Below, piece after piece: positions 5,219 to 58,803 of a stretch of 64,000 nucleotides of DNA. Each line of letters begins with the position of its first letter. Position 1 is the first letter of the stretch. A model generated the notes under the pieces. That model was not told the origin of the DNA and made no database searches. It saw nothing but the letters and a program-made list of their open reading frames with translations. Source of the stretch: a virus. The stretch lies in IMG/VR virus record IMGVR_UViG_3300032298_001038, positions 1 through 64,000 of that record; one strand, 5' to 3'. The position numbers and the translations under genes were made by a program.

Positions 5219-5611
5219 TCAAGATGCGGATTGCATAGCCGCGGCGGCCGCGGCTTGCAGGGTCAATACAGCGTCGGCAATTTCGGGTTGGCCGGCGGCG
5301 AGAGCGGCCACGTCGTGAAACGCAGCCTGCTTCTCGTCGCCGCCATTTGTACCCGACGCCGCCGCGAGGACCGCATCCAGTTGCTGATTTACAGCAGCCA
5401 GACCACTGTGCCTTGCCGCAGCGGTTTTTTCCTGCTCAGCCGTATAGAGCACATGAAGTTTCTGGGCAGCGGTCCACATTTCCGTGGCTTCGGCTTCCGA
5501 CGCGGGCGTGATGCCGTGCGCCGAAAGTTTTTCAAAGAAATATGGGGCGGCAAGTTGCGTCACAACCGTGGCGTAAGCCTGCTCTGCCGCTTGCTTAACA
5601 GTATCAGACAT
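5219..5611 (-). CDS. Ala-rich head-associated protein with K-x-A motifs
   Basis: SD AAAGGAG; VKQA, EKTA and EKQA motifs. Confidence 0.65.
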   Translation of the reverse strand: MSDTVKQAAEQAYATVVTQLAAPYFFEKLSAHGITPASEAEATEMWTAAQKLHVLYTAEQEKTAAARHSGLAAVNQQLDAVLAAASGTNGGDEKQAAFHDVAALAAGQPEIADAVLTLQAAAAAAMQSAS

Positions 5612-5640
5612 GATTAGTGCTCCTTTGGTATTTATACGGC

Positions 5641-6567
5641 TCAGACAAACGTTACCTTCGCCAAACCATTCGTGTGGCCGAACGAGCCGCCTTGCGTGTT
5701 GTACGCAAAGTACTCAAGCATGAACGCTTCACGACGGATGTACATCGTGGTCGGTTCCAGTTCGTAGTTCTTGCCGATGAACTTCGGCGAGGCGAACATG
5801 TACAGCACATCGTTCGGAACGAGGTTCCGCTTGATCGTCACGATCCAGCGGCAGTTGAGGAAGTTCGTCTCCGCCCAACCGTTCTTGATGATGTCCTGCG
5901 AGAAATCACCGCCCATCTCGTCGCGGCCGAACTTCAGCAGTTCCTTGATGGTGATGTTATTCACCAAGCAAGTCTCCACTTCGAAGTGGCTGGGCGTCGA
6001 GGGCATAACCTTCAGGGCGTCAACGATCGTCTCGCGGGTGATCCCGCCCGAGATCGTGACGTTCTGCGGCACGCCGGACAGCGCGTTGTTGGTGTCGGCA
6101 GTACCGACGGCCACGTCGAGCGCCGTGATGAACTTGGAGTCCTCTTCGGCCAGCATGTCCTTGATCATGTTGTCCGACAGAACCTGACGGATGTCGATGA
6201 CGTACGTGCGCAGTTCGTCAACGTCCTTAACAGCGCGGGGCGACACGATCCGGTCAAACATGACGCGGTAGCGCGGGCCACGGATGTAGAAGTTGATCGG
6301 AAGCGTCGCGAACGGGAGCGACACGGCCGCCGGGGAATCGGGTTCCTTGTCGACAACCTTCACCGGCTTGTCCGTGTCAACCTGACGATCGAGTTCGTCG
6401 TTGGTGATGGTCAGCGGGGGAAGAATACGACGGTAGAACCCGTCTTCACGCATCTTGGTGCGCGTGAAGTCATTAACCGCATCAATGGCCTGCTTCTGCA
6501 TGCCGGGGGTATCAAGTTGCTCAAAAAGCGTCTCGTTGAGCAGTTGAACTTCTTGCTGAGTGGGCAT
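5641..6567 (-). CDS. Major capsid protein (HK97/encapsulin-like fold)
   Basis: About 308 aa, downstream of protease, scaffold and decoration genes; HK97-like pattern (spine-helix region QVLSDNMIKDMLAEEDSKFI, C-terminal beta strands). The start is likely MPTQQ, not MEV. Confidence 0.8.
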   Translation of the reverse strand: MPTQQEVQLLNETLFEQLDTPGMQKQAIDAVNDFTRTKMREDGFYRRILPPLTITNDELDRQVDTDKPVKVVDKEPDSPAAVSLPFATLPINFYIRGPRYRVMFDRIVSPRAVKDVDELRTYVIDIRQVLSDNMIKDMLAEEDSKFITALDVAVGTADTNNALSGVPQNVTISGGITRETIVDALKVMPSTPSHFEVETCLVNNITIKELLKFGRDEMGGDFSQDIIKNGWAETNFLNCRWIVTIKRNLVPNDVLYMFASPKFIGKNYELEPTTMYIRREAFMLEYFAYNTQGGSFGHTNGLAKVTFV

Positions 6568-6571
6568 TGTA

Positions 6572-6587
6572 AAGACCTCCATGTCTT
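6572..6587 (-). promoter_or_regulatory. CsrA/RsmA-type hairpin over the MCP Shine-Dalgarno
   Basis: AAGAC-ATGGAG-GTCTT. Confidence 0.6.
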
Positions 6588-7234: not shown

Positions 7235-7660
7235 TCAGGTAGTGGGCGGATTGAGACCGAGACCAGTGAACAACTTAATGTCGCTGGCCTTGAGGCGACC
7301 ATCGCGGGCACCCACATACCCGCTCGTCAAACTTTTCTCGGGGTCATAGGAAGCAGCCTTCTGCTGACCCACGGGTGTGCCAAGTCGCGCCATCTCGGCG
7401 GCGTTCTTGTGGCCGGCGAGTTTGACGACAAGTTCCATCGCGCGCACCGGATCGTGAAGCGCCTTTTCGAGGGCTTCCTTCTGGTGGGCTTCGATACGTT
7501 CATGTTCAACGCAGGCTTCAACGGCAGCCGGAATAAGCGAGGCCAACTTCTCAGCCTGCTCTTCCTGCGCCTTGATCGCCGCGGCGGCCTTCGTCAGCGC
7601 CGCATCGGAATAACCGATGTAGTCGATGACCTTCTGTACAAGCGTGTTCTTATCGGACAT
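7235..7660 (-). CDS. Helical head-assembly protein
   Basis: In head operon; K-x-A motifs; SD within a CACGGAGG hairpin at 7663-7683. Confidence 0.65.
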   Translation of the reverse strand: MSDKNTLVQKVIDYIGYSDAALTKAAAAIKAQEEQAEKLASLIPAAVEACVEHERIEAHQKEALEKALHDPVRAMELVVKLAGHKNAAEMARLGTPVGQQKAASYDPEKSLTSGYVGARDGRLKASDIKLFTGLGLNPPTT

Positions 7661-7678: not shown

Positions 7679-8995
7679 TTATCGGTTAACGAGTTCCAGA
7701 ACGTGCTGCTTCATGACGTCACGGAGTTGGCGCGAACGCTTGGTGCGCGCTTCCTTGACCTGAAACTTGCCGGCACGCTTGAAATTTACAACGGCACGAC
7801 CGATGGCGTTAAGGTCGTTGGCAGCGGCCATCTTCGGGCCGGCTTCCATACCGCCCATTTCGCCACCACCAGCGCCACCTTCGGCAACGGCTTGCAGAAG
7901 CGCCTCGGGCGGGATGCCGAGTTCTTCAAGCGCCATGGCCAGTTCTTGAACGGCTTCTTCGTCGCTCGGCTCGCCGCCCGCGTCGCCTTCAAGCCCTTCG
8001 GCTCCTTCAGGAGCGCCACCCATCATGGCTTCCATACCGCCCTCGGGGGCCGGGGGAGCGTCGCTGGCGCCTGACGCGGCGTCACCGGCAGCGCTGTGGT
8101 CTTCACCGGCAGCGGCTTCGTCGGTCACGTCGGCGTTGGCTTGCTTAGCGGACAAAAAACCGATCAGAAGATCAGCCATCTCGTCGGCTTCGCGAAGCGT
8201 GTTAGCGCAAACTTCACGAACAGCGGCCTCAGCCGCCTCCTTCTCGACGCCGAGAGTGGCGGCGAGTTCGTAACCAGCGTCGTACGCGGCGGCCTTGCCA
8301 GCGCGCAACGAGGCGAGATCAGAACCCTCGATTTTGCCGTCATTGTCGACGTCCAGTTTGTGCTGGTCGCCCTTCAGGTTGCCTTTGCTTTTGTGCTCGG
8401 ACTTTTCTTCATCCGACTCTTCCGACTTCGACTCGCCCTTCTCGTGAAGAGCCTTGGCGAGCGCCGGAGGCATTTCGGCTTGCTTCAGATTCGCGGTGCC
8501 AAAGTTAATCAGGTTGGCAAGGATGTCGTTGCCAAGGTTGCTGCAAGCATCGCGGGCTTGCTTGAACGACACGCTGCTGTACTTCTCGCCGTCGTTGGTC
8601 TTGGCGGGATGCGACGTGCCCGGGTCATCCTTCGTTCCCTTGTAATCCTTTTCAGCGGCCGGGTCTTCGCCGGTGGCCTTGGCGTTCGTGCCGATGTTTA
8701 ACTGCACGTCGTCCTGCCGGCCGTCCTGCGACATCTCGGGGGTGTTGTCAACCGAGAGCGCGCCCTGCTGTTGCTTGATGTCGGCTTCGTACTCGCGGGC
8801 ACGCTCGCCTTCCGGGGCGTCCTGCACGTCGTTACCAACACTTACGGACGGATGCGTCGAAGCGCCTTGATATCCACCCGGATCAGCGGGGACGGGGCCA
8901 GCCTTCTTTTCAGCGGCGGCCTTGACCGAACTCTGCGAAATCTCTTCCGCGAGAGCATTAAGTTGAGCGAAAAGGGAACGTTGCATCCGTGCCAT
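7679..8995 (-). CDS. Putative scaffold protein (acidic, low complexity, many K-x-A sites, EF-hand-like loop)
   Basis: Between protease and MCP; very D/E/A/G-rich; DVDNDGKIEGSD loop. Confidence 0.6.
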   Translation of the reverse strand: MARMQRSLFAQLNALAEEISQSSVKAAAEKKAGPVPADPGGYQGASTHPSVSVGNDVQDAPEGERAREYEADIKQQQGALSVDNTPEMSQDGRQDDVQLNIGTNAKATGEDPAAEKDYKGTKDDPGTSHPAKTNDGEKYSSVSFKQARDACSNLGNDILANLINFGTANLKQAEMPPALAKALHEKGESKSEESDEEKSEHKSKGNLKGDQHKLDVDNDGKIEGSDLASLRAGKAAAYDAGYELAATLGVEKEAAEAAVREVCANTLREADEMADLLIGFLSAKQANADVTDEAAAGEDHSAAGDAASGASDAPPAPEGGMEAMMGGAPEGAEGLEGDAGGEPSDEEAVQELAMALEELGIPPEALLQAVAEGGAGGGEMGGMEAGPKMAAANDLNAIGRAVVNFKRAGKFQVKEARTKRSRQLRDVMKQHVLELVNR

Positions 8996-9041: not shown

Positions 9042-10502
9042 TCATGTGACATAATTTTGCAGTACACAGTGGTTTGCTGTCAACAAGTTATTCCGGTATT
9101 TTTCACTGGCGGCAGCGTAAGCAGCAATCTTATACAAAGCGTAGTGCTTCGCAAGAGCAGTTTCTGCGTTTGTGCTGGCCCGCTTTTCTGTCTGAGGTTT
9201 TACAGGTTTAACGTTACGAATTGCGGCTAAATAGGCACGTTTTTCAAGGTTATCGATTAACGTGCTGTGCGTACGTGCAACCTTTTCGGCCCAAAGCCTT
9301 ACGGAGTCTGACGCGCTATCTGCCGGATAAAACTTGTTGTTTTCCAACGAGGAAACGATGTCTTCTTCTGCCGCGAGTTTCGAAAAAACGTTTGGCAGCG
9401 CGTTTGTCACTGCCTCAACGAGTTCAACATTAGCAGATTTGACCGTAAGTGCCAAGAAATCCCTTACAGACAGGATGACTCCGGCGTCGGCTAGTCCGCG
9501 TAATACCTCCGCCATTTTAGCAAATGGACAGGCGTTTATATCAAGCGCAGGCTGTACAGACGGGTGCGCGGCGAGGGCCATCTGAGTCCAACCGTTGGGA
9601 TTGTTAACAGATTCTTGCTCGGCTTGCGCCAGTTGTTGCAGGGCGTTGAATTGCTGCGCGGCGCGCTTCGACGCCATGGCCGAATCCAGACCGTACGGCA
9701 TCGTGACGCCCAGTTGCTCGGCCAGTTCTGCGCCTGAAACCATGGTTCCCGCAGACGCCGCTTTCTCCAACCGGCCCGATACGTAAGCGATACGGTCCGC
9801 CGGGCGGAACACGTGAGAAATGTCGAAAAACGAGCACTTGATGTTGTCGGCGTGGAGGATGTGGCCGTCCTCCAACACCCGGCCCATGTGGTGTTTTAAA
9901 CCGCCGGCTTTGCAGTGCCCGCCGTTCTCAATCGAGTCGCAGTATTCGGCGCGGGTGCGGGCTTTATTGCCGCAAGACGAACAAATATCAAAAGGGATTT
10001 TGCACGCCATGGAAACCGGGATGTCCTTGCCGGAACCCAGTTTTTCCATCTCTTTGTCGGCCAGCAAACCGCCGTTACGGTCGGCGGCCTCCTTCGAGCC
10101 GTTCAGCGCGCAGATCAGTTCGATCCGCTTCATCGGCTCGTTGTAGTACGACGCCTTTACAATGCCGAAACTCTTGGCCGGATTCTTGTTGGCGTGGTCG
10201 CGGTAGAATCGTGCAAACTTTTCAAACGTGTGATGATCTTTTTTGCACGTGTCGCGGCTAAAGCCGTCGCCGTTGCGGTTCGGGCCGTAGTCTTCAGTAG
10301 CACCAATAGCGATCAGGTGCACAGGAACTTCATCTTTTGCGAATTTAATGTGCGATACCTTTTCGACAAACTCGGCTCCGGCGCGCTTTACAAACGCCTG
10401 CTTGTCGTGGCCTATGATGCCGCGATTAGATACTTTAATCAGCGCGGCGACCGGCTCGCTGAAGTCCTGCGAGTTCGGCTGAATAACTTTGATCATGCTC
10501 AT
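9042..10502 (-). CDS. Putative prohead maturation protease with Zn-finger insertion and C-terminal extension
   Basis: FYRDH and VSMAC candidate His/Ser; CKIPFDICSSCG...C...C; canonical position upstream of scaffold and MCP. Confidence 0.65.
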   Translation of the reverse strand: MSMIKVIQPNSQDFSEPVAALIKVSNRGIIGHDKQAFVKRAGAEFVEKVSHIKFAKDEVPVHLIAIGATEDYGPNRNGDGFSRDTCKKDHHTFEKFARFYRDHANKNPAKSFGIVKASYYNEPMKRIELICALNGSKEAADRNGGLLADKEMEKLGSGKDIPVSMACKIPFDICSSCGNKARTRAEYCDSIENGGHCKAGGLKHHMGRVLEDGHILHADNIKCSFFDISHVFRPADRIAYVSGRLEKAASAGTMVSGAELAEQLGVTMPYGLDSAMASKRAAQQFNALQQLAQAEQESVNNPNGWTQMALAAHPSVQPALDINACPFAKMAEVLRGLADAGVILSVRDFLALTVKSANVELVEAVTNALPNVFSKLAAEEDIVSSLENNKFYPADSASDSVRLWAEKVARTHSTLIDNLEKRAYLAAIRNVKPVKPQTEKRASTNAETALAKHYALYKIAAYAAASEKYRNNLLTANHCVLQNYVT

Positions 10503-10510: not shown

Positions 10511-12418
10511 CTACAGCAGGTTGAGGTTTCTGTCTTTGATCTCGCCAATGGCTTTGTCGCGGTCGGCGCGGAGTTTATCCATTTCGAGAATCTGCTTTAC
10601 GTCAAAGTCCGCTAACTGCCCGGACTCAAGACGCTTGCGCAACAACGGCCGGATCATGCCCGGGGCGTCGATAAGGCTGGGCGCTAATTCCGCAATTTCG
10701 TTAAACGCCATTGCTACGTCCTGCGGGTCATAGCCGGAAATAACGGAATCATTCAAAACCATATCGTGCAGCACGCTCTTGGCGCGGATAGTCTTCAGCG
10801 CGTTTTCGTGCGTCGGGTCCATGAGTTTTTGGTACTGCTCGCGGACAACCTTCTTGGAGTCTGTATCTTTGATCGGCGACAAGTCGCTCAGATTTTTGGC
10901 GCCCAACAACCCGCCGACGAATTTAATCGGCGTGTCCATCTTGGGCGCAAGGTCTTTTACGGCTTTGCCAAAATCGCCGCTGATGCCCTTTACCTTAGTT
11001 TTGAACTCATCTTGCTTCTTGGCAATCTCTTTTTGCTGGAACTCTTCGTCCATAAGCCGGGCTGCCTCGGCTTGTTCTGCGGTTAAATCTTCTTCACGTA
11101 ATTTGCGCGCATATTGCATGTCGCGTTCTTGCTGCACTCTGTTGTTTTCGTTTTGATTAAACAACGCGTCTTGCAGTTTTTCGTCATCAGCCTGCATCTT
11201 GGCGGCGTCTTCTTCCTGCATCTGGCGGTGTGTCGATTCGTCGCGTTCTTGCTGCACGCGATTGACTTCGCGTTGGTTAAACAAAGCATCTTGCAGTTTT
11301 GCGTTATCGGCCTCTTGCTCCTCGCGCGCAAATGCTTCTGCCGGCGTTTCTGGTACAAGTTTTTTGCCCATGTTTTCGAATCGCGCGCGTTCCCGTTCCG
11401 CCGCGTCGAGTTTATGCGCTTGGCTGCGGACGTAATCGGGGCTGACGTTCGGGATGCCTAACCGGTCTGCAAATTCTTGTTGAAAGTTTTTATCGCCGCC
11501 AATGTAATTTGGCGGCTTTTTTGCCGCTGACTTTAACGTCAAAGGCTCTTCGACTTTTTCGGCAAGGATTGAGCCTGTAAGAAATTCTGGCGCGGTTTTC
11601 TTACCAACCGCTTCGGCTTTTTTTGAGGATGTCTTCGCCTGAGCGGCGTTGTAAGCGCCAACGGAATCAAGCACGTTCTGCACTAGTCCGTATACCGCGT
11701 CGTCGCCGAAGTGCTTTTTGTTTGTGTCCGCTTGCTTCGTGAAGTGCGGATAAACAGCCGCAACCTTTTGCAGCACAGAAACACCCTGCACGCCAAACCG
11801 AAGATTTACTTCGCGCAAAGCGTCGCCAAACGACATGTTGCCCGGCGTGCGGAAGTACACGTTCAGGTCGTCGAGGGCTGTGGCGGCCTTGCTATAAGCA
11901 GCGGTGGCTTGGCGGCGGGTTTCCTCTTCTGCGCGATGAGCGGCCATCTTTTGACTCTGCGAGCGAACAACAGCGGCGTGTTCGTCGCGCGGCGGCGGTG
12001 TCCACGTCTTTTCAGGCAGGGCCACTTTTGCCGCGGCGGACTTTTGCATCTCGTCCTTCCTGCGCGCAAGCATCCCAGCGACAGGTAGCGCGTATTCAGT
12101 CGAGACAACCTCGGCGCGTTTGATGGCGGACGAAGATTTCACTGTTTCAGGGTACAGGGCTTTAAGAACGTCGTTCACGTCAGCCAGCGGGAAGTCAGCG
12201 GCTTTTTCCAGCGTGCTGTCGCTCTTCTCGCGCTGCGTCGTTGTGCGGCCGGTGTTATAGGCGTGCACCATGAGGTTGATGTGGCCCGCTGGAATATCGT
12301 GCTCGCGGGCGCTTTTAATGATTGCGTCTGTCGGTGCAGCCCCGTCATTTACGAGCGCGGCAGCCTTTTCGATAGCGCTGATTAACTTACGCTCGGCGTC
12401 TTTGCTGAGTGAACGCAT
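10511..12418 (-). CDS. Large helical, Cys-free virion protein with K-x-A sites
   Basis: 635 aa, no Cys, at least 7 K-x-A motifs, internal 40-aa duplication. Confidence 0.65.
   Translation of the reverse strand: MRSLSKDAERKLISAIEKAAALVNDGAAPTDAIIKSAREHDIPAGHINLMVHAYNTGRTTTQREKSDSTLEKAADFPLADVNDVLKALYPETVKSSSAIKRAEVVSTEYALPVAGMLARRKDEMQKSAAAKVALPEKTWTPPPRDEHAAVVRSQSQKMAAHRAEEETRRQATAAYSKAATALDDLNVYFRTPGNMSFGDALREVNLRFGVQGVSVLQKVAAVYPHFTKQADTNKKHFGDDAVYGLVQNVLDSVGAYNAAQAKTSSKKAEAVGKKTAPEFLTGSILAEKVEEPLTLKSAAKKPPNYIGGDKNFQQEFADRLGIPNVSPDYVRSQAHKLDAAERERARFENMGKKLVPETPAEAFAREEQEADNAKLQDALFNQREVNRVQQERDESTHRQMQEEDAAKMQADDEKLQDALFNQNENNRVQQERDMQYARKLREEDLTAEQAEAARLMDEEFQQKEIAKKQDEFKTKVKGISGDFGKAVKDLAPKMDTPIKFVGGLLGAKNLSDLSPIKDTDSKKVVREQYQKLMDPTHENALKTIRAKSVLHDMVLNDSVISGYDPQDVAMAFNEIAELAPSLIDAPGMIRPLLRKRLESGQLADFDVKQILEMDKLRADRDKAIGEIKDRNLNLL
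11121..11310 (-). repeat. 120-bp-period in-frame tandem duplication
   Basis: KLQDALFNQxExNRVQQERD at 11121 and 11241. Confidence 0.85.
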
Positions 12419-12419
12419 G

Positions 12420-17953: not shown

Positions 17954-17957
17954 AGGC

Positions 17958-17973
17958 GCCACCTCCATGCGGC
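17958..17973 (-). promoter_or_regulatory. CsrA/RsmA-type hairpin over SD
   Basis: GCCGC-ATGGAG-GTGGC (one G-U pair). Confidence 0.55.
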
Positions 17974-20896: not shown

Positions 20897-20897
20897 A

Positions 20898-41590: not shown

Positions 41591-41596
41591 CGTAAA

Positions 41597-43923: not shown

Positions 43924-44016
43924 GTGATGACTCCTGTCGGGGAGCCACTACTTTAGCGGGTCTTTCCGCACCTGTAAACGGCACTTGAGTGCTTTTCGGT
44001 TGGGGCCGAACGGGTG

Positions 44017-47949: not shown

Positions 47950-50319
47950 TTACAGGCCAAATTGCGCCCGCAACCACGCATTTGCAACGGGATTTTGGGC
48001 TGTTTCTTCCGGCTCCGCGTCCAAAATACTTGATATCTTTACGCTCGGACCCTCGGGCGGAGGAGCGCCACCTTCTTCACGGAGAATGCGCCGGAACGCC
48101 TCGTTGATCTCTTCTTTCTCCGCGGTGAGTCGTTCCAGTACTTCGTCGCCGGTGCGCTGGCGTTTGGCGCCGAATAAATACTTCCCGATCAGGCCCGGCT
48201 CAGTCGATTCGGTGAGGTACCGCCGGACAAGCACGTTGCGCAGGTCTTCAGGCAGTCCCGCGTGGCTGTCAAAGCGCAGACCACGGCCGCGGGCTTGTTG
48301 GCTGCGGGCTTCGTTCCAGTGCGGGTCCAGAAGTTGAATTAAACTCGTGCCCTTCGTGCTAATCCCTTCCGCCGCGGCCGGCCCGAGAAGCAGGGCTTTG
48401 CTGCGCCCTTCGTTGTAGTCTTTCAGGGCTTTCTGCCGGTCTTTCAAGGGGATGCCGCCATGAAACACGCCATACGGAATCTTGTCCCGTTCAAGGGCCG
48501 CAGCATAGGGGTTCACGCCCGAATCAATGAAGTTCGAGTAGATGATGGCTTTCTTGCGCGGGTCTGATTTAATCGTCTCTTGAAAGTCCTGATACGCCTT
48601 TTGCATCTTGCTGGACTGCTCGAACGCCTTGATCGGATTCTTGTCTTTGCGGAACGCCTGCGTGGACAAACTCACTTGGCGCAGGCCGTTCAAGAACGAG
48701 TTCATCTTGGCCAGTTCTTCGCGCGACAGTGGGAACTCTTGGTCTAACTTCCACAAGAAGCCGGGCGGAATGCGCGTGCGAATGGCGTTCTGAATCTTCT
48801 GCTGTGCGTCGGACATCGGCACGCGCACGATCTCTTCATTAACGTTCACGCCTTCAGGAGTCTTGCTGGGGTGATAGTCCACTTTGCCCTTGAGCAGTTC
48901 ACGCAGTTCGTCTTCGTTCTTGACGTAGGCTTTCTCGCCCGGCTTTGCGCCCCTGAACCAACCCAACCAGCCCGGGCCGACTTTCTTGTAGCCCACGTAC
49001 TTCTCTTCGAACTGCTCCGGAGAAATCTTCTGGTTGTTCAGCATCGAGAGCAGGCTGGCCAAGTCGGTCGGCGCATTGGTGATCGGCGTGCCCGTGAGCA
49101 AGAGTAAACGCTTGGCTTGGCGCGCGGCCTCTGTAGCCGCGCGGGTGCTGGCGGCGTCGGGATTACGTAACCGGGCAGCCTCGTCCATGATCAGCGTGTC
49201 GGGCGGCTTCTTGAACTGCTTGCCCAAACCCAACCCGGTGTAACTCATGATCTCAGGCTTGGACCCGGTCGTGAACTTGTCGATCTCTTTCTGGAAGTTC
49301 GCGCGCAGACTCGCCGGGACCACGACGCCGTAGTCTTCTTGATATTTTTGTTTGGCGGCTTCGGCAGCAGCAATAGCCGAGAGAGACTTGCCGGACCCTA
49401 GGCCGTGATAGACCAGTAAGCGCGGGTCGTCGCCGGTGAGTTTGTCGGCAATGCGCTGTTGGTGCTCTTGGAGTTGGACTTCTGGTAATAAGTCGGCTTG
49501 CTTTTCCGGTTGTTCGTGTTGAATGTACTTAGCCGGAATTTTCTGCGTAGTGTACTGGTCGGTCATGAGCATATTGAGCGGCCACGGAAACAACGGCTGC
49601 ACAGCAAAGTCATCAGGGAGTTCTACTTTCAAGCGCGCGTCGCCGTACCCAGAGTTCAACTGCGGATGTGTGGCTAGAAACACCCGACGTTCGTAACCCG
49701 GAATGTCGGTCGGGACGCCGGAGTCAGCCCCAGTACCAGCAAATTCCGGGTCAAGACCGCGCTCCAAAATAGACTTGAGGTTTTTGCTGGCGGTGCCGTG
49801 ATAAAACGTTTTTGCAGCCTGCTTCTGCTGCGCCAGATGCCGCTGCGTGGCTTTGGTCTTGTACGCGTCCAGCATCTCGGCAACGCGCTGCTGCTCTTCA
49901 GGCGACACGAGCGTCGTCGGGTCAATTGCCCAGTTGCGCAGCGCCCAGCCGCGTCGGGGTGTGGGGTTCTTGGCAAACGGACCGCCATGGCGGGCTTTGA
50001 AACTCAGCCAGCGCTTGATCTGCCGGGTGTCTTCGTCCGGGATTCTGCGGCCACTGGTGTAACGCTTGTACCACTGCGCCCAGCCCTTGGGATCGTGCTC
50101 GCTGACCCATTCAGGCTTCCACTCGCCAAGACTGGCTAACCGCGGGCCTTGGCCGCGGTACAGCGCGTCGTACACGCCAAGGTTCTCCAGTTGCTCCGGG
50201 GTGTAGTCCGGCGCAAACGCGGCGTCGAGAGCCTGCAACTTCTCCGTGGCTGTCTTCAAGATAGCAGCCGGAAGATAGTCCGCGTCCAAGATAGATTTGC
50301 TGGGCTGCCTACTTGTCAT
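47950..50319 (-). CDS. Polyprotein: unknown domain + ADP-ribosyltransferase-fold domain + SNF2/SF2 helicase
   Basis: DPKGWAQWY.RY..GRR...D..QI.RW; YHGT...SIL..GL...VFLA...IP.KYI; HGLGSGKS, DEAA, TGTP and QARGRGLR; KQA at both junctions; no Cys. Confidence 0.85.
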   Translation of the reverse strand: MTSRQPSKSILDADYLPAAILKTATEKLQALDAAFAPDYTPEQLENLGVYDALYRGQGPRLASLGEWKPEWVSEHDPKGWAQWYKRYTSGRRIPDEDTRQIKRWLSFKARHGGPFAKNPTPRRGWALRNWAIDPTTLVSPEEQQRVAEMLDAYKTKATQRHLAQQKQAAKTFYHGTASKNLKSILERGLDPEFAGTGADSGVPTDIPGYERRVFLATHPQLNSGYGDARLKVELPDDFAVQPLFPWPLNMLMTDQYTTQKIPAKYIQHEQPEKQADLLPEVQLQEHQQRIADKLTGDDPRLLVYHGLGSGKSLSAIAAAEAAKQKYQEDYGVVVPASLRANFQKEIDKFTTGSKPEIMSYTGLGLGKQFKKPPDTLIMDEAARLRNPDAASTRAATEAARQAKRLLLLTGTPITNAPTDLASLLSMLNNQKISPEQFEEKYVGYKKVGPGWLGWFRGAKPGEKAYVKNEDELRELLKGKVDYHPSKTPEGVNVNEEIVRVPMSDAQQKIQNAIRTRIPPGFLWKLDQEFPLSREELAKMNSFLNGLRQVSLSTQAFRKDKNPIKAFEQSSKMQKAYQDFQETIKSDPRKKAIIYSNFIDSGVNPYAAALERDKIPYGVFHGGIPLKDRQKALKDYNEGRSKALLLGPAAAEGISTKGTSLIQLLDPHWNEARSQQARGRGLRFDSHAGLPEDLRNVLVRRYLTESTEPGLIGKYLFGAKRQRTGDEVLERLTAEKEEINEAFRRILREEGGAPPPEGPSVKISSILDAEPEETAQNPVANAWLRAQFGL

Positions 50320-50664: not shown

Positions 50665-51531
50665 TTATTTGGGGTCATCGGGCAGTTTGAACTCGACTAC
50701 TTCGAAGTCCAAGGCTGCTCCCGTTGTCGCCCGTGCGGCCAGCGCCAGTTCGTACTTCTCGATCTGCGATTCTACCCAATTGGCGTATAAACTGACACGG
50801 GTAAATGCACTTTCGTCGCCATACGTGCCGTCGGGTTTCTTATCAACCGCCATGAGAAAAGAGTTAATACCGGCGAGTTCATTGCCGATAAACATCCCGC
50901 CGCCCGAGTCGCCCGGCGAGATCATAAACTCCAGCGGAAACCGCCCAGCACCCGTGGTGGGCTTGCAGACTAATACCCCACGCTCCGTGCCTTCGACAGC
51001 GTTATGCCCAGCCCGTTTCTTGCCGTCAGAGAGCGTGCAGCCGGTGTGAAACGTGCCCGTCAGGCCGTAGCCGGCAATGGTGATCGCCTTGCCCAGTTCG
51101 TCCTGCTTTTTGTACAGCGCCGGGTAAAAGTCCAGTTTAAAATCCTTGGGCGAGTAGCACAGCGCCAGATCGTAAAAGCCGATGTTATCGCCATTAAATT
51201 CCTTGGGTACGATGACGTCGTTGAGCACGTACACGTCGTCGTTGTCTTTGATCACCGCATGAACCGTGGCGCCTTCGACCACGTGGGCGGCGGTGAGCAC
51301 CCAATTGGGCCTAATGATTACGGCCGACCCGTACTGGACGGCCGGCCGTGTCTTGCCCGTGTCTGTGTCAGGAATCTCGCTAATCGCCCGGTAGCGGACG
51401 ACCGACGGAAACTGCTTGCCAAAATCTTGGTACTTGCTGTCGGGCGTGTTCGGGTCGCGGGTTCCGGCGTGTAGCCCGTCAAGTGCCGACAGAAAAAATA
51501 ACAACGTTGTCAGTAGTGCGCGAATAAACAT
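50665..51531 (-). CDS. Secreted trypsin-like (S1) serine protease
   Basis: Signal peptide; TAAH, DLAL and GDSGG catalytic triad. Confidence 0.9.
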   Translation of the reverse strand: MFIRALLTTLLFFLSALDGLHAGTRDPNTPDSKYQDFGKQFPSVVRYRAISEIPDTDTGKTRPAVQYGSAVIIRPNWVLTAAHVVEGATVHAVIKDNDDVYVLNDVIVPKEFNGDNIGFYDLALCYSPKDFKLDFYPALYKKQDELGKAITIAGYGLTGTFHTGCTLSDGKKRAGHNAVEGTERGVLVCKPTTGAGRFPLEFMISPGDSGGGMFIGNELAGINSFLMAVDKKPDGTYGDESAFTRVSLYANWVESQIEKYELALAARATTGAALDFEVVEFKLPDDPK

Positions 51532-52368: not shown

Positions 52369-53163
52369 TCAGTGCTGCGTGCGTTGCGCCAGTTGGGCGC
52401 CAAAATCCTGTGCGGCCGACATCTTGCCGAAGTGGTCCATGGCTGCGCCGCCCAGACCACCAGCAATGCCGCCCATGCCAGCGCCGCGAAGAGCGCCAGA
52501 CAGCATGCCTCGGCTGCGCTTGCGGACGTTGCCGTCCTCGTCTTCGTACTCTTCTTCGCCGGGCATCATCGCGCCAGCCAGACCACCAAGGCCGGCACCG
52601 AGCAAACCGCCACCAACAGCGCTGCCAAAGCCCTGTGCGGTCTGCGGGTTCATGCCGACAGCCCCGCCCAGCGCGCCGCCAAGACGTTGTAACCCGCCAC
52701 CGATGTACGGCAGTGCGCCGCCAGCAACACCTGCCGCGCTGGTCGCCAGTCCGACCGGGTGCATCATGTACGAGCCAACGCCTTTTTGGCCCACGAGCAT
52801 ACGCGGCACTAAGTTCTTCCATGTCTTCGTCGCGTTGTTGGCGACGCTGGGCAGAATACCTGTAGTCGCGACGGCCTTGGTGCCCTGCCAGAGTTTGTTG
52901 GCGTTGCTTACTAACGACTTGCCGCCGAGACGCCACAGGCCACGGGCAAGCGCACCGTACGCTTCTTTTTCAAGACCATTATCTTCTGCGTGCACACGAG
53001 CAACCATGGCAACTTTACGCTGAAACTCGTCTTGGCTGAGCCGCTTGTGCGCCGTCGAGATCATCTTCGGCTTGATGTCGCTCGTACCCTCGCCAGCGTC
53101 GTGGACTTGCATCTTCGGCGCAGTGGTTTCGGGCGGGCAGCAGTTCTTTGTTTCGTTGCTCAT
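52369..53163 (-). CDS. Gly-zipper virion protein
   Basis: EKEA after a Cys-containing leader; Gly-zipper hairpin; C-terminal AQDFGAQLA. Confidence 0.65.
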   Translation of the reverse strand: MSNETKNCCPPETTAPKMQVHDAGEGTSDIKPKMISTAHKRLSQDEFQRKVAMVARVHAEDNGLEKEAYGALARGLWRLGGKSLVSNANKLWQGTKAVATTGILPSVANNATKTWKNLVPRMLVGQKGVGSYMMHPVGLATSAAGVAGGALPYIGGGLQRLGGALGGAVGMNPQTAQGFGSAVGGGLLGAGLGGLAGAMMPGEEEYEDEDGNVRKRSRGMLSGALRGAGMGGIAGGLGGAAMDHFGKMSAAQDFGAQLAQRTQH

Positions 53164-53198
53164 GGTCGTTCCTTTTGATAGTTAAATGCGCCCGTGAT

Positions 53199-55904
53199 TT
53201 ACATCACGCGGGCGCCCATTGTGGAGTTGAAGTTCGTGGGGCCTTGGCTCAGTCCGGCCGCGGGAGACGCCGACGGCATCGGCCCGGGCGCCGGAGACTG
53301 GACCGGCATCGAGTTCTGTAATGCAGGCGCCGGAGGGACACTGGCGCCCATTGTCGCGCTGGCATCCGCCGGGCCTTGCGGAATTACCGGCGATTGCGGT
53401 GCAGGATTCTTCGCGGCTTCAGCCTTGGCGGCCTCGACCAAGTCAGGCTGCATTGTCGCGTCGGTTGAAATACCCTTTTCAGGAGACCCGGCGCCTTGCT
53501 GTTTCGAGGCCAGATGCGCCTCTAACAGCGCACGAATCTTATCGCCGCCGAAGTAGCCAGCCGCACCGCCAGCCGCCCCGCCGACGGCCGCGCCACCAGC
53601 CAAGCCACGCAGCGCGCCCATCAAACGAGACCGACGCTTACGCCGGCCAGTCATCGGGTCTGTTTCGTGTCCCGGAGCCAGCGCGCCAAACAACGCACCG
53701 CCAGCGCCGAGCGCGGCGGCACCCGCACCTGCACCAAGGCCAGCGTCGCCCAAGTTGGCTGTCTTTACTTCAGGCTTTTTCTTCTTGGCGTCGTTCTTGC
53801 CAGCACGGCTTCCCAGATACGCGGCGCCACCAAGGAGACCTGCTGTTCCCAGACCAGCCGCAGCATACGGCGTGTACTTCGAGTTCATGATCTGCTGGAG
53901 CATTCCCGGCTCATCGCGCAGCGCCATATTTCCCAGCGCGCCAAACAACGCACCGCCAGCACCAGCAGCGCCTACGCCGCCTGTGATCTTGGCCCATTGC
54001 GGCAGCGCGTTCAGGCCTTCAGCAGCCCGACCGGCGTAACCCTTCGCGGCGTCTAACCCAGTGGTTGCAGCGCCAGAAGCGTTACGCCCCAGCCGTTGCA
54101 GCCGCGCCATCATGCGGAGATACGTGCTGATGGCCTGCTTTTCCATCGGATTGTTCGTGGCCTTCGTCAACGCGTACCAGTTCATACTTGCAGCCTTGGG
54201 CATCTCGTAGTCTCCTTCGTCTTCTTCACGTTGCGGGCGCTTCTTTTTCTTGTTACGGCGCGATAAATAATCAGCCAACGCAATGGCACCCAAACCACCG
54301 GCGCCAATCGCCGCATAGGGAGCGTAGGGCTTAAGTTGGTCGAGCATGGACGGCGGCGGGGGAGCGTCGGGCTTGAGCCACTTGAGCAAGTTACTGCCCG
54401 CGCCCATGCCAGCCCCCACAGCGTCCTGACCCTTCTGGCCAATGAAACTCAGCGCACTGCCGATGCCCTTACCGGCACCGATGCCCATGCGCTTGGCGGT
54501 ATCGAGGTTCTTGTTGAAGTACTCCCAATACACCTTGTCGTTCAGTTTTTCTTCCGCCGAACGGGGCCGAGAGACAGCCCCAGTGCCAGACGACGCCGAC
54601 ATGTCGGGGATCATCGCCGGCGGACGCCACTTGCCGCCGCCACTTGCAGCCGGAGCACCAGCAGGAGCCGGCGCATCAGCCATGTTGATTGGCAGGCCAG
54701 TCGTGGGCGAGATCGGCATGCTGGCGCTCGACGGGTCAAAGCCCGGAGGCGCGCTCATGGCCAGACCGGGCGAGGGCGGAATGCTTGCGCCCATCGTGGC
54801 ACTGGTGTTCAAGTCAGCATGCTTCTTGAGCAGTTCAGCGTAAGCCGCCATCTTCTCGGCCAGCGTCAGCGTTGTGTTATTTAAAAGCGCGTGGGCTTCC
54901 TTCTTTTTCGTCGCAGGAATGTTACCGTCTTCGTCTTCTGCCGGACCCACAAGCGCGTCGGCTAACGCTTTGCCGCCAGCGTGACCAGCCATGCCGCCGA
55001 ACGTGCCACCCACGCCGGCGCCCAGCGTCGCAGCATTACCGACGTTCGACAAACCTTGGTAACTCTTCGGCGCGCCGGTCAGGCCGATGACGGCGCCGCC
55101 ACCAAGACCAGCACCCACGGGAAGTCCGGCGCCAATGCCGAGTCCAGTTCCGGCGCCCATGAGCATTCCGCGGGCCATGCCGCGCAGTTTGTTCTTGGAG
55201 GTAACCGCGCCAGCAGCACCACCCACTGCGCTCCCGAGAACGCCAGTGCGCAAAAGGTAATTCAGCAGCAATTGGGTTTCGGGTTTCATCGCCTGCTTCT
55301 CGTTCTCGCTCATGGAAACATCCTTGTTAATACTCGATGATTTGTGTCGTTCATTATAGCGGGCACGTGCATCCGCCATATCAGAAGTTCGCTTACTAAA
55401 ACGTTCCGTGGGCCTGTAATATCTGGCCCGCGCGGTGGCTACGATCTTGTTGTTATCCCAGCCCAGAAAGTCGGCTTGGTACTGCGGGTCGGCTTCTAAG
55501 TCTCGCTTCGCGGCGCCCTCGGGCATTCTCCGCATGAGTTCTTCTAAACCTTCGTTCTTGGCTTCTCGGTCCATGCCGGCTGCAATGGCGGCCAAGCCAC
55601 CGGCGCCCAAGCCGCCGATCAGCGCGCCCATTCCCGAGTAACCTTTGCCGTCTGAACCGTGTGCAGTACCACCGATTGCGCTGCCGATTCCAGCCCCAAG
55701 TAACCCCGCCGGCACGCCAAAGATCAGGCCAGTCTTCAGGGGGCTGGCCATGAGGTCGGGAATCGGCGTCCCGTAACTCTGGAAGATGCGCGGCAGCCAG
55801 CGTTTCTTGCCGGCTTCCAGTGCGTCCTCCTCGTGGGGCGCTAACGTTCGGTGCGCCGAGATGTCAGGAATACCGCTCTCGGCACGTTTAATTTTCTCAC
55901 TCAT
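53199..55904 (-). CDS. Large modular Gly-zipper polyprotein (Cys-free)
   Basis: At least 6 K-x-A sites separating hydrophobic GxxxG modules; repeated SATMGASxPP motif. Confidence 0.7.
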   Translation of the reverse strand: MSEKIKRAESGIPDISAHRTLAPHEEDALEAGKKRWLPRIFQSYGTPIPDLMASPLKTGLIFGVPAGLLGAGIGSAIGGTAHGSDGKGYSGMGALIGGLGAGGLAAIAAGMDREAKNEGLEELMRRMPEGAAKRDLEADPQYQADFLGWDNNKIVATARARYYRPTERFSKRTSDMADARARYNERHKSSSINKDVSMSENEKQAMKPETQLLLNYLLRTGVLGSAVGGAAGAVTSKNKLRGMARGMLMGAGTGLGIGAGLPVGAGLGGGAVIGLTGAPKSYQGLSNVGNAATLGAGVGGTFGGMAGHAGGKALADALVGPAEDEDGNIPATKKKEAHALLNNTTLTLAEKMAAYAELLKKHADLNTSATMGASIPPSPGLAMSAPPGFDPSSASMPISPTTGLPINMADAPAPAGAPAASGGGKWRPPAMIPDMSASSGTGAVSRPRSAEEKLNDKVYWEYFNKNLDTAKRMGIGAGKGIGSALSFIGQKGQDAVGAGMGAGSNLLKWLKPDAPPPPSMLDQLKPYAPYAAIGAGGLGAIALADYLSRRNKKKKRPQREEDEGDYEMPKAASMNWYALTKATNNPMEKQAISTYLRMMARLQRLGRNASGAATTGLDAAKGYAGRAAEGLNALPQWAKITGGVGAAGAGGALFGALGNMALRDEPGMLQQIMNSKYTPYAAAGLGTAGLLGGAAYLGSRAGKNDAKKKKPEVKTANLGDAGLGAGAGAAALGAGGALFGALAPGHETDPMTGRRKRRSRLMGALRGLAGGAAVGGAAGGAAGYFGGDKIRALLEAHLASKQQGAGSPEKGISTDATMQPDLVEAAKAEAAKNPAPQSPVIPQGPADASATMGASVPPAPALQNSMPVQSPAPGPMPSASPAAGLSQGPTNFNSTMGARVM

Positions 55905-55952
55905 GTGTGCGCCGTCCGTGGCTGCAAGACCGAAGAAAGTCCGGCGGGAAGA

Positions 55953-56348
55953 CTAGCCCTTGCCGAACAAGAATTTATCGATCTCTGGATTATAACGCGA
56001 GACCACTTGGCCCGCATAGTTCGCTAAAGCACCCGTGCCGGCGCCAATACTTCCCTGCTGGAGCGCCCCAAGCCACGGTTTAATTTTCTTCTTGGAGATC
56101 ACGCGGCCTTCGTCGTCCAAGGTCTCGTTATACCCGGGAAACATGTAGCCCTTCACGCTGCCGATTGTGCCGCCCACGCCCGCCGCAATCAGGGCTTGGC
56201 GGAGAGATTTATAGTCCGCGGGAAGCCGGGCCGCGCCTTCGTTATCGAACAAGCCGGCCAAGATGCGCGGCGCGTCAAACGGTGACAGGCTGGCGACCTT
56301 TTCGCCGAACAACCGGGCCGCATTTTTTTTGCTATCAGAAGCCAGCAT
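55953..56348 (-). CDS. Gly-zipper hairpin protein
   Basis: ARLFGEKVA leader; PG...DDEG..K hairpin loop. Confidence 0.65.
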   Translation of the reverse strand: MLASDSKKNAARLFGEKVASLSPFDAPRILAGLFDNEGAARLPADYKSLRQALIAAGVGGTIGSVKGYMFPGYNETLDDEGRVISKKKIKPWLGALQQGSIGAGTGALANYAGQVVSRYNPEIDKFLFGKG

Positions 56349-56353
56349 AGTGA

Positions 56354-56986
56354 TTACATTCCGGCCGCGCGGCGAAGGGCGTCAAACTGGTCCCACGAAT
56401 CAGTCAGGCCCTTCCACTCGGCGGGGTTTAAGTCGCTGAACCCCACGGGCTTGACGCGCGGGACTTTCAATGTGCCCTCGGCCATGCGTTGGGCGCCGAT
56501 CGAGTTCGTAACAAGTTCTTTAATCTTGTTGCCTTGCTGGCCAAAAAACTTGCTCACGTCACCGAAAGATTCGGGGTTTATAGTCCGTGCGGCCGTGTCG
56601 CCGATCGTCCGCAGGCTATTGCGCGTATGGTTGGCGACGTAGCGCGCAGCATCAGCGCCAGCGCCGGTAGCGTTCTGGAAGCCGCCATGGACAGCCTGCA
56701 CAGCCTCGTCGGCTTGGCTTCCAATCTGGCCCAGATACTTCGTGGCAAGGTCTTTGATCTTGGACTGGTTTACGGCCTTCGCAGCCGCGGTCATGCTAAA
56801 CGGCACAGGCATTGGAGGTGGCGGCCTGCGCATCATCTTCGCAACACCGCCGAATGCTTTCCCCAGCGCCGGAGCAGCCCGAGCAGCCATCGCCAACGGA
56901 TTCGCCTGCTTCTCGGTCGTACTCACAGTGTTAGCCACATACTCGCCGAACATGTGGGCCGCGGTTTTGTTATCAAAGGCCATCAC
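56354..56986 (-). CDS. Ala-rich Cys-free protein with K-x-A sites
   Basis: NKTAAHMFGEYVA; EKQA. Confidence 0.65.
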   Translation of the reverse strand: MMAFDNKTAAHMFGEYVANTVSTTEKQANPLAMAARAAPALGKAFGGVAKMMRRPPPPMPVPFSMTAAAKAVNQSKIKDLATKYLGQIGSQADEAVQAVHGGFQNATGAGADAARYVANHTRNSLRTIGDTAARTINPESFGDVSKFFGQQGNKIKELVTNSIGAQRMAEGTLKVPRVKPVGFSDLNPAEWKGLTDSWDQFDALRRAAGM

Positions 56987-57063
56987 TTGAATTCCTTGAA
57001 GTTGACGTGCTGCCTAATTGGCATCTGGCTTTGCTTTGTGCCAATTAGGCAGATGAGATTTAG

Positions 57064-58803
57064 TTATTTGGGGCCGGGAAAAAGGGACTGCCCAACAGCG
57101 CCACGAGTGCCGCCAAGCAGGGCTGAACGCACAGTGGGCGCGCCGCCACCAGCAGCCGGCGTCACATTAGTTTGGCCGCGGCCCATGAGTTGGTTCATCG
57201 CTGTCGTGCCTCGTTGCACGCGCTGCTGGTACGCCTGTGTCTGCTGCGGGCCGACGAGGTTCCCTAACTGCACGCGCGGGTCATTGGGGTTGGTAGTCGG
57301 CCCCAGAGCAAACGGCGCCGCGGCCAACTTCAGGCCGAACTCCATCGCGCTGGAGCACTTGCAGTTCCACTTGCGCAGGGACTTGTTAATCCGCGAATCA
57401 GGGTCGGACTTCGTCTTGGCGCCGGTGTTCACGCGCTTCATGCCGCACATGCGTGAGCAGAACGAATTCTGGCGCTTCTTCGCCTCGCCCTTGGGGTTCT
57501 TCTGGGTCACAGGAGCCTTGAGATTCCCACCGTGCTCGCGCTCGTAACTCTTGCGCCCCTTCTCGTTCAGGCCGCCTGCTTCGTTCTTGCCCTCACTTCT
57601 TTGCCATGCCGGCGTGCCTGCTTCCTTCTCGCTCTTGCTCTCGTCTTTCTTCTTCTTCTTTTTGCCGCTTCCTACGGGCCGGCAGGAGTCTTCGCTAAAG
57701 GGTTTCTTGCCCGGCACCGGCTCGTATCCAGCCCAGCAACGCGCGATCTTCATGACATATTCAGCGCTGTACTTTTCCATCACGGCGACTTTCTTTTCAG
57801 AGGGTTTGTAGCACGACCCGCCCGGCTTTCGGCACGAGCAGGACTGGGAGCATTTGCAGGTCTGGACCGTATCGCCGCAGCCACACGAGCAGGGCATATG
57901 CTTGTCAGTTTTGCTATCAGAACTCGCGGCTTTACGCCCGGCAAGTTCTTCTTCAAACTCTTCGCTGTAATAGTCTACATCCAGCGGGTCGACAGTGTTA
58001 AGGTCCATGAGTTTGGTCAGGGCTTCGCTGCGGGTGGCGTGTTTTATTACTTCAGCCGTCTTGGAACTGTCGGGGCTATTCTTGGCGCCGAACGCTGCAT
58101 TCCCGTTGATTACCCCTGTCGTCGAGAGCGCGCCGAACGCATTAATCGGGTTGAATTGTGGATGCGACCCGCCACCGACAGGTCGCGTGGGATACTGGTT
58201 ATTGGGCTGAGATTGCTGGGATTGCGCCGGTGCTTGGGCCAGTCCCATCGGCGGGAGAATATTAACACCCCCGACAGGGTATTGTTTAATTCCGCGGTTT
58301 CGGCCAATTCTGCGCGCCACACGTCCCTCGCGCTCAGCCCTCATGTTCTCCAGCGTTTGTTCAATATGCGGCGACAGGACCACAGAAAGTTTCGTCAGCA
58401 AATCATTTATAGCGTTTTTGGGTTTATCCCCACACCCTTCGCCCACGTTCATGCCTGTAGGAATCTCGCTTGAAATCTGTCCTTTTGCGCGCTCTTCCCC
58501 TGCATAAACCGGCTTGGAACTGTGGGGGATGTCTACGCGTTCTTGCTTGGAATCAGCGGTCTTATCAGTTTTGCTCATGGTAGTATTAGCAATATCGATA
58601 CGGCTAGACTTACAATTATTCACATATCTGTTAACAAAAGTTAAAGCAGCCGTATATGCGCTTTTCTCCGTAGTATCGTCTTTGGCTTTATTTGCGTACA
58701 TCGGGAGTTTCTTTTTGGTGGGATACTCGTGTGCCCAGCGCTTGGCTATCTCAGGATGTTCGGCCCAGAGAAACCGGCGTTGTTTTTCTGACTTAAAGGG
58801 CAT
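57064..58803 (-). CDS. Mosaic polyprotein of mini-modules (MPFKS, metallothionein-like, CWxGY, DUF6321-like)
   Basis: Each module is bounded by K-x-A (EKSA, DKTA, SKTA, RKAA, KKVA, MKIA, EKEA, LKLA). Confidence 0.7.
   Translation of the reverse strand: MPFKSEKQRRFLWAEHPEIAKRWAHEYPTKKKLPMYANKAKDDTTEKSAYTAALTFVNRYVNNCKSSRIDIANTTMSKTDKTADSKQERVDIPHSSKPVYAGEERAKGQISSEIPTGMNVGEGCGDKPKNAINDLLTKLSVVLSPHIEQTLENMRAEREGRVARRIGRNRGIKQYPVGGVNILPPMGLAQAPAQSQQSQPNNQYPTRPVGGGSHPQFNPINAFGALSTTGVINGNAAFGAKNSPDSSKTAEVIKHATRSEALTKLMDLNTVDPLDVDYYSEEFEEELAGRKAASSDSKTDKHMPCSCGCGDTVQTCKCSQSCSCRKPGGSCYKPSEKKVAVMEKYSAEYVMKIARCWAGYEPVPGKKPFSEDSCRPVGSGKKKKKKDESKSEKEAGTPAWQRSEGKNEAGGLNEKGRKSYEREHGGNLKAPVTQKNPKGEAKKRQNSFCSRMCGMKRVNTGAKTKSDPDSRINKSLRKWNCKCSSAMEFGLKLAAAPFALGPTTNPNDPRVQLGNLVGPQQTQAYQQRVQRGTTAMNQLMGRGQTNVTPAAGGGAPTVRSALLGGTRGAVGQSLFPGPK

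Follow-up and report, generated by a model that had tools for sequence, protein, structure and literature searches.

Lys-x-Ala as a candidate cleavage code of the prohead protease in the head and cargo proteins of an uncultured phage

Bacteriophage T4 encodes one protease within its head genes, which cuts (Leu/Ile)-x-Glu sites in gp23, gp22, IPI-III and Alt; the scaffold is destroyed, and a packaged ADP-ribosyltransferase is among the substrates. To our knowledge, all characterised phage proteases of the T4 gp21/phiKZ type cut after glutamate. The maturation and release sites of herpesvirus assemblin read (V/L)-x-Ala, with Ser next. Here we describe a short motif, Glu-Lys-x-Ala (E-K-x-A, or EK.A in pattern counts), in the head and cargo proteins of an uncultured phage, together with the prohead protease that probably reads it. 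The window analysed is a stretch of 64,000 nucleotides (IMG/VR record IMGVR_UViG_3300032298_001038) that forms the first 64 kb of a 198,312-bp genome in one contig; a survey of open reading frames placed almost all genes of this genome on the minus strand.

In phage SPN3US, the protease gp245 recognises A-x-E as P3-P2-P1, with Ser preferred at P1′, and cuts itself; many head and ejection proteins of SPN3US and phiKZ, including subunits of the virion RNA polymerase, are processed at one short consensus, and in SPN3US the reported cuts other than the self-cut all remove N-terminal propeptides (PMC10052503). It is already known from T4, phiKZ and SPN3US that head and ejected proteins are processed at one consensus by a prohead protease. 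Polyvalent proteins, known from phages and conjugative elements, in which unrelated enzyme domains are joined in one late-gene chain, are thought to be delivered with the DNA, and their processing has been predicted to proceed via an embedded zincin-like metallopeptidase (MPTase) domain (PMC5512222). In the literature searched, outside which most subscription journals lie, we found no description of a Lys-x-Ala specificity for a phage head protease, nor of polyvalent proteins, themselves without a peptidase domain, being cut at their joints in trans by the capsid protease.

The window resembles T4 in its head-encoded protease, in a motif of the P3-x-P1 type and in the N-terminal leaders of its internal proteins, which would be the substrates here. 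It differs from T4 in the motif itself, with a basic P3 and Ala at P1 (K-x-A) instead of hydrophobic-x-Glu, in sites that lie also at the internal joints of multi-enzyme proteins, and in a protease that bears a Cys4 insert and a helical domain. In phiKZ gp175 and SPN3US gp245, P1 is Glu ((A/S/G)-x-Glu), whereas the window motif ends in Ala and also brackets whole domains. The Glu-ending consensus of T4 and phiKZ does not fit the window, where the selected positions are Lys and Ala. With assemblin the window may share an Ala at P1 and a Ser or Ala next to it (K.AS is enriched in an uncultured relative and in phages G and Arash), as well as a putative site of self-release that divides the protease from a C-terminal, scaffold-like region; the presumed P3 is Lys, not Val or Leu, and P4 is often Glu. 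Finally, the cargo chains of the window recall polyvalent proteins by combining 2H 'Swiss Army Knife' (2H-SAK), Nudix, ADP-ribosyltransferase-like (ART-like) and SNF2 domains, and differ from them in joints that carry the motif of a separate, capsid-resident protease, which would act in trans.

E-K-x-A in the window proteins

An earlier note on this DNA had pointed to [EQK]-K-[QTESA]-A as a recurrent pattern. All instances it named are present in the translations, and the pattern occurs 31 times in 18 proteins where per-protein shuffles lead one to expect 7.4. The shorter form in which the motif had been proposed did not stand out from shuffled controls, bare K-x-A being at chance level in the window proteins (147 seen, 128 expected); with Glu in front, the enrichment is clear (30 vs 7.35). 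When all 8000 patterns of the form ab.d were counted, none picked beforehand, EK.A was the most enriched (z 8.1). Ala stands two residues past E-K in 30 of 100 E-K dipeptides (background 11%, p 4e-7), and Glu precedes 30 of the 147 K-x-A (background 6%, p 3e-9). What the statistics support is thus E-K-x-A, with some freedom at P4.

A recurrence of this kind could be a functionless by-product of composition or of helix repeats in Ala/Lys/Glu-rich proteins, and many of the carriers are indeed Ala-rich and of low complexity, bare K-x-A is not in excess, and several sites lie in helices. When residues were shuffled within blocks of 10-50 residues, however, 8-9.3 +/- 2.8 EK.A were expected, with 22 as the highest of 500 shuffles, against the 30 observed; a composition artefact is ruled out by the shuffles in 10-residue blocks (9.3 +/- 2.8). 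Moreover, Lys and Ala within the motif are much better conserved than those elsewhere in the same proteins, and phages that differ in host and base composition also have this motif at the head of their lists. Since the local shuffles and the contrast in conservation together refute composition as a full explanation, we find the by-product reading barely credible. A motif at the level of DNA was rejected as well: Glu, Lys and Ala are encoded at the sites by mixed codons, used roughly as elsewhere in the genes, which places the signal in the protein.

The sites are biased toward N-termini. Thirteen of the 30 EK.A lie within the first 75 residues (residues 8-71), where 17% are expected in these proteins (p 6e-4), and short N-terminal leaders that end in the motif, a feature of the T4 type, are present. 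The residue after the motif Ala is small in 12 of the 30 sites, compared with 25% expected (p 0.05).

The motif had been called genome-wide, which proved too broad, as the excess is mainly in the head and cargo genes at 5-60 kb. Observed and expected EK.A counts were 0/0.3 at 1-5.2 kb, 14/2.6 at 5.2-21 kb and 11/2.1 at 44-60.5 kb, then 3/5.5 at 100-150 kb and, as a smaller excess at the far contig end, 11/4.1 at 150-198 kb. The cargo region is interrupted at 36000-44000 by a block of small genes with a tRNA-Asn (41597-41668) and a glycosyltransferase, in which 1 EK.A was seen and 0.7 expected.

Conservation and spread of the motif

A search with the protease as query recovered 40 IMG/VR loci at 31-91% identity. 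EK.A ranked in the top five by enrichment in 31 of 39 loci (proteases 62-91% identical; for example, 19 vs 2.9 expected), and four complete relatives showed a 3-3.5-fold excess of it over their equivalent 64-75 kb (25/7.8, 25/7.1, 27/7.4 and 19/6.2). Conservation was then measured over 22 alignable sites in four complete relatives, the proteins encoded at 52369-56986 being left out for want of orthologue alignments. The motif Lys and Ala reached 0.83 and 0.85, the motif Glu 0.60, the middle residue 0.47 and the flanks 0.43-0.70; for Lys, Ala and Glu elsewhere in these proteins the values were 0.49, 0.51 and 0.48. In a protein-matched bootstrap, p was 0.0013 for Lys and 0.0006 for Ala. Several K-x-A form islands in stretches that are otherwise 6-30% conserved (KKAA326, EKKA238, EKQA272, DKTA94 and LKSA295). 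Judged from these alignments, the motif Lys and Ala are under purifying selection. The Glu before Lys is weakly conserved and is replaced by D, Q, N, S or T in relatives. The selected core is thus the K-x-A of the earlier note, with Glu as a lineage-typical, replaceable P4 and a last position that tolerates small residues.

The RNA polymerase of the window led to a cultured phage, Salmonella phage Arash, whose gp222 is 40% identical to the window protease and whose gp226 is 30% identical to the capsid protein. EK.A is again the top pattern across Arash gp204-226, with 18 vs 2.7 expected in the annotated genes and 15 vs 2.6 in our own open reading frame calls. Outside the head genes, counts were 0/1.6 and 1/1.0 in tail and baseplate regions and 2/2.4 in metabolic genes; the comparison of structural with metabolic genes suggested in the earlier note was run on Arash, and it bears out the enrichment (head 15/2.6). 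The Arash sites, EKAA49 of gp216 among them, usually have a hydrophobic residue before Glu and Ser or Ala after Ala (K.AS, 13/2.8). In Arash virions, more spectra came from gp206, the RNA polymerase beta subunit, than from any other protein, and beta′ and the SNF2-type helicase gp217 were detected too (PMC10585845). Experimental hints that such enzymes are packed in this phage group are confined to these mass-spectrometric data; by analogy, the window phage may pack them as well.

Farther away, in a complete uncultured relative with a protease 30% identical to that of the window (G005), K-x-A-S outranks all other patterns in the neighbourhood of the protease and capsid genes (16 vs 1.9; x-K-x-A, 64 vs 33.6), and small scaffold-like proteins carry five to seven sites each. 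A search with the protease domain also matched Bacillus phage G gp19, gp95 of Bxz1 (cluster C mycobacteriophages) and proteins of Gordonia, Rhodococcus and Vibrio phages. The head module of phage G has 12 K.AS where 2.1 are expected (x-K-x-A, 55 vs 29.5); its gp19 has been listed as a head maturation protease, with no cut sites described (PMC12484599), and the phage G capsid structure 6wkk is uninformative on cleavage, the chain being nearly full length and the capsid protein having no motif there. In Bxz1 the motif signal is weaker, with R-T-A alongside. Across every lineage examined, the core motif travels with the protease family, weakly so in Bxz1. In Bxz1 (L074 11839-15951), the gp21-like protease domain is the N-terminus of the 1370-residue gp95, whose annotation gives no more than that number, and is seemingly part of its own long chain.

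The same comparison bears on whether another enzyme of the window cuts the sites, as both a trypsin-like S1 protease (50665-51531), which would cut after Lys, and a matrixin-like M10 peptidase (30626-31453) are encoded among the cargo genes. Trypsin-type enzymes often cut after Lys, which on this account is the most conserved motif residue; such a cut would, however, leave the equally strong conservation of Ala unexplained. Searched against 50,697 phage records, those of Arash, phage G and Bxz1 among them, and against the complete G005, the trypsin-like gene gave no homologue. Because the gene is absent from phages that still carry the K-x-A(S) enrichment, the trypsin-like protease was rejected as the reader of the motif. 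The matrixin matches a peptidoglycan-binding domain weakly, below threshold, a hint that this enzyme acts on the cell wall. Overall, we regard cutting by either enzyme as very improbable. In one relative (G003 C1:105571-106389), a homologue of the trypsin-like protease contains one in-frame TAG.

Taken together, these observations leave us in hardly any doubt that the motif is real, selected and specific to the head.

The prohead protease and its presumed cutting rule

The gene at 9042-10502 (minus strand) encodes a protein of 486 residues that had been taken for a prohead protease, and both its fold and its residues agree with this. The AlphaFold2 model, which reached a mean predicted local distance difference test score (pLDDT) of 89.9 with 113 diverse sequences and 47.7 with 16 close relatives, comprises a gp21/assemblin-fold domain at residues 1-234 and a helical domain at the C-terminus (257-486), joined by a disordered linker (235-251). 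In VIA-align comparisons, residues 1-233 matched T4 gp21 (5jbl) best, with Z 11.2 and a root-mean-square deviation of 3.4 Å over 151/165 residues, followed by the proteases of varicella-zoster virus (1vzv, Z 5.8) and human cytomegalovirus (8j3s, Z 4.3); assemblin is thus the second-best fold match. Foldseek returned 5jbl with probability 1.0 and nothing else of note. The Ser of the VSMAC sequence, Ser164, is invariant in the 113 diverse homologues, as are His103, Asn75, Asn77, Asp79, Asp172 and Asp227, and His62 is kept in more than 90%. From this pattern, the protein is probably a Ser/His enzyme with Ser164, His103 and His62 as candidate catalytic residues.

The protease has no Pfam match at E<=0.01, no NCBIfam protease match and no PDB sequence match, profile search included, and its sole PHROG match is phrog_2774, of 'unknown function'. 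With no curated sequence match and the fold of gp21, it represents a separate sequence family with the same fold. This family is large (3375 representatives at E<=0.001, as clusters at 50% identity), and the window member carries a Cys4 insert in addition to its 230-residue C-terminal helical domain. Inteins (Hint plus LAGLIDADG) enlarge about a quarter of the top 150 protease homologues to 600-1300 residues (for example, P0001, P0011, P0036 and P0052). Their insertion points adjoin residue ~104 or ~165, alongside the invariant His103 and Ser164; one homologue has two inteins. Inteins tend to occupy catalytic motifs.

The protease itself carries the motif. EKAA at residues 246-249 (9756-9767, minus strand) lies in the linker 235-251, the sole segment of the model with pLDDT below 50. 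In 110 members that are 36-54% identical to the window protease, the columns of this site read L-[K/E/Q/T]-K-A-A-[S/A], and the equivalent linker sites are VL-EKVA-N in Arash gp222, with EKVA at 217-220, and IL-EKVA-S in phage G gp19. In the model, EKAA246-249 is placed as a predicted self-release site between the protease and helical domains, of the kind known in assemblin and SPN3US gp245. Three further EK.A, at residues 406, 420 and 439 (9177-9287, minus strand), lie in the C-terminal helical domain, and at 406 and 420 the E, K and A are kept in 36-39 of 40 relatives.

Where the bond would be cut follows from the P3-x-P1 rule of this protease fold, read with the fixed Lys and Ala, the free middle residue and the Ser, Ala or Gly that comes after: by analogy with its relatives, the enzyme would cut after Ala, with Lys at P3 and Ala at P1. 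The general motif, as far as the alignments define it, may be written [E>D/Q/N/T]-K-x-[A>S/G], then a small residue.

An uncut signal could produce much of this pattern. If K-x-A served for docking or capsid targeting, with the scaffold, the portal or the helical domain of the protease as its binding partner, the restriction to the head, the N-terminal bias and the conservation would suit that role equally well, and the internal proteins of T4 do bear a short N-terminal capsid-targeting sequence. Targeting would not, however, need many repeats within scaffold-like proteins or copies at internal joints. The motif also occurs in the disordered linker of the protease itself, where self-release usually takes place, and two fixed positions two residues apart together with a small residue are the known substrate rule of the fold. 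We therefore think an uncut signal unlikely, and consider that the prohead protease encoded by this phage probably recognises E-K-x-A and cuts there.

Head proteins, cargo chains and genes beyond the window

Family scans of the span 5219-58803, to which the motif had first been traced, identified an HK97-fold capsid protein (5641-6582), a two-gene, multisubunit RNA polymerase pair (20917-25347 and 18001-19941), and matrixin-like, trypsin-like, PhoH, Volactin and several glycine-zipper genes. The head genes are ordered as core-like (10511-12418), protease (9042-10502), scaffold-like (7679-8995) and capsid (5641-6582), and an equivalent layout of protease, scaffold and capsid genes is found in Arash gp218-226, phage G gp14-27 and Bxz1 gp89-97. 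All head and cargo features listed below are on the minus strand.

Between the protease and capsid genes, 7679-8995 encodes an acidic, low-complexity, scaffold-like protein with EKKA at residues 29-32 (nucleotides 8900-8911) and EKEA at 251-254 (8234-8245). Across 40 relatives, site 29 has E in 29, K in 39 and A in 39; no tblastn match to this protein was found among cultured phages. The neighbouring small helical head protein (7235-7660) has EKLA37, QKEA60 and QKAA100, with K and A of site 37 present in 37 of 37 sequences. An Ala-rich head protein of 130 residues (5219-5611) carries EKTA61 and EKQA93; of 35 sequences, E is kept at site 93 in 31, K in 31 and A in 27, and the flanks are free to vary. 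On the other side of the protease gene, a coiled, Lys/Ala-rich protein of 635 residues (10511-12418), which resembles a head-core or scaffold protein, holds 14 x-K-x-A sites, including EKAA17 and EKAA71; its LKSA295 and KKTA273 are conserved islands between variable flanks.

The HK97-fold major capsid protein (5641-6582) has QKQA at residues 29-32 (nucleotides 6487-6498) in its N-arm. Its family matches are phrog_2522 at 5.7e-5 and NF042927 at 1e-6, the latter below its cut-off, and it has no PDB sequence match. The protein is 89-98% identical in relatives, and K-x-A is kept in the same place as VKQA in G005 and VKEA in Arash gp226; Bxz1 gp97 has EKQA at 41-44.

N-terminal sites are also found in larger proteins of the span. 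A structural protein of 805 residues (15551-17968), by BLAST a homologue of the Arash virion protein gp218, has T-K-x-A at residues 31-34 (nucleotides 17867-17878), which aligns as TKVA/TKYA/TKYA/TKQA/TKTA. The fused beta/beta′-N RNA polymerase subunit recognised by Pfam (20917-25347) contains QKKA at 80-83 (25099-25110), kept in all four relatives (once as QKNA) and aligning by eye with EKDA60 of Arash gp206; it is possible that this QKKA marks the end of an N-terminal leader. A 251-residue protein (20153-20908) has a leader ending in EKSA at 23-26 (20831-20842), of which E is kept in 27 of 29 relatives and K and A in 29, and a 168-residue protein (26745-27251) carries EKTA8 and EKSA35 near its N-terminus.

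It had further been claimed that the motif sits at domain borders, and all the borders listed are literally present in the sequences. The polyvalent cargo protein at 33869-35836 reads, by Pfam, as a leader, EKQA34, 2H-SAK, RKAA188, NUDIX, KKAA326, DUF5661, EKAA404, a Pro-rich linker, KKQA472 and a C-terminal domain. The alignments with all four relatives pass over the Nudix module, leaving a gap between RKAA188 and KKAA326 that is cleanest in G004 (query residues 1-194, then 327-647); KAA of KKAA326 is kept in all four, in flanks that are only 6% conserved. A second polyvalent cargo protein (47950-50319) consists of a module at residues 26-164, QKQA165, a weak ART-like module at 169-271 (PARP E 0.026, Tpt1 0.2), EKQA272 and an SNF2 helicase (Pfam); its Arash homologue is the virion protein gp217. 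Its homology blocks stop at 163-167 and resume at 272-273, which are the positions of QKQA165 and EKQA272, and the site at the SNF2 start reads SKQA/DKTA/NKAA in relatives, followed by EL.PD. In G001, G002 and G004 the N-terminal module (26-164) is placed after SNF2 and the 169-271 module is absent, a reshuffle that resembles a circular permutation. Insertion, loss and reordering of modules at the motif would be expected if each worked as a separate product, to which these changes point only indirectly. The two chains thus combine domain sets of the polyvalent type (2H-SAK, NUDIX and DUF5661; weak ART-like and SNF2), and Pfam and PHROG scans, among which the profiles of PMC5512222 were not included, detected no peptidase domain in the cargo chains.

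Two further proteins share a small module. The multi-module protein at 57064-58845 carries EKSA60, DKTA94, a Cys-rich module, MKIA365, a CWAGY module, a run of Lys, EKEA406 and DUF6321 (Pfam). Its DUF6321 joint reads EKLG/EKIS/IKTS/AKQA in relatives, from which P1 would be A, G or S. The Q/A/P-rich glycine-zipper protein at 44017-46092 ends in AKEA616, a CWKGY module, a run of Lys and EKTA652, and the position of AKEA616 is taken by MKVA/YKMA/IKGA/EKAA in relatives. The CWxGY module is common to both proteins and to relatives, in the format x-K-x-A, R-C-W-x-G-Y ... poly-Lys ... E-K-x-A. The unit spans about 40 residues (R-C-W-x-G-Y-E-P ... S-C-R-P ... six or seven Lys; 44128-44247 and 57619-57753), with K-x-A on both sides; if cut out, it would be a small cationic peptide with two Cys. 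Among the other glycine-zipper proteins, that at 25344-26372 (Pfam) has EKKA238 (nucleotides 25650-25661), which aligns as EKAA/QKAA/EKHA/EKKA in flanks only 19% conserved. Glycine-zipper or membrane-like proteins are also encoded at 52369-53163 (EKEA65), 53199-55904 (EKQA202, EKMA350 and EKQA588), 55953-56348 (EKVA16) and 56354-56986 (EKQA25).

If the prohead protease reads these sites, maturation inside the assembling prohead would proceed in four steps. The protease would free itself at EKAA in its disordered interdomain linker and would chop the scaffold and core proteins encoded at 7679-8995, 7235-7660, 5219-5611 and 10511-12418. It would then remove N-terminal leaders of 8-70 residues from some twelve internal proteins, among them perhaps the capsid protein and RNA polymerase beta. 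Finally, the multi-domain cargo would be cut at its joints into separate 2H, Nudix, ART-like and SNF2 enzymes in the head, along with glycine-zipper modules and the ~40-residue CWxGY/poly-Lys peptide, ready for ejection. That the cargo chains are cut into free enzymes, and do not merely lose their leaders, is plausible, and we put the case for it at about even.

Several points weigh against this account. Cleavage in the window phage is read from genes alone, and the Arash supplement is a gene table without peptides. The catalytic residues are candidates chosen by their invariance. Some EK.A lie inside folded helices (protease 94, 406 and 420; Volactin 104) and may be due to chance or be inaccessible. 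The preference for a small P1′ residue is only marginal in the window, and four loci in which TK.A or VK.A rank high (L016, L020, L021 and L033) show no concerted switch of P4 from E to T or V, the aligned sites keeping E. In addition, the cuts in SPN3US nearly all remove N-terminal propeptides only, so that internal cutting of cargo would be unusual (PMC10052503).

A specificity of the Lys-x-Ala/Ser type would bridge the Glu-cutting phage enzymes to the Ala-cutting enzymes of herpesviruses. If true, it would make the mature ends of head proteins predictable in thousands of uncultured large phages and would offer a concrete mechanism for separating multi-enzyme polyvalent cargo that has no in-built peptidase. 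The fold and family matches also allow genes of Arash, phage G and Bxz1 that are carried as 'structural' or 'hypothetical protein' to be named as head protease. More tentatively, and with somewhat less confidence than in the freeing of cargo enzymes, we suggest that the very large gp21-fold family (3375 clusters, with members in phage G, cluster C mycobacteriophages and Arash) shares a Lys-x-Ala cut code, that any module flanked by this code can be added to a chain bound for the capsid, and that the protease serves as a trans-acting polyprotein processor that loads heads with freely shuffled sets of separate enzymes, membrane-active glycine-zipper pieces and small cationic Cys peptides for ejection.

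Outside the window, a gene at 154051-155256, one of the few on the plus strand, encodes a helical protein of 401 residues with four EK.A sites, and three minus-strand genes at 175439-180842 carry EK.A at residues 14, 24 and 61. Their products may be further substrates of the protease, encoded far from the head module.

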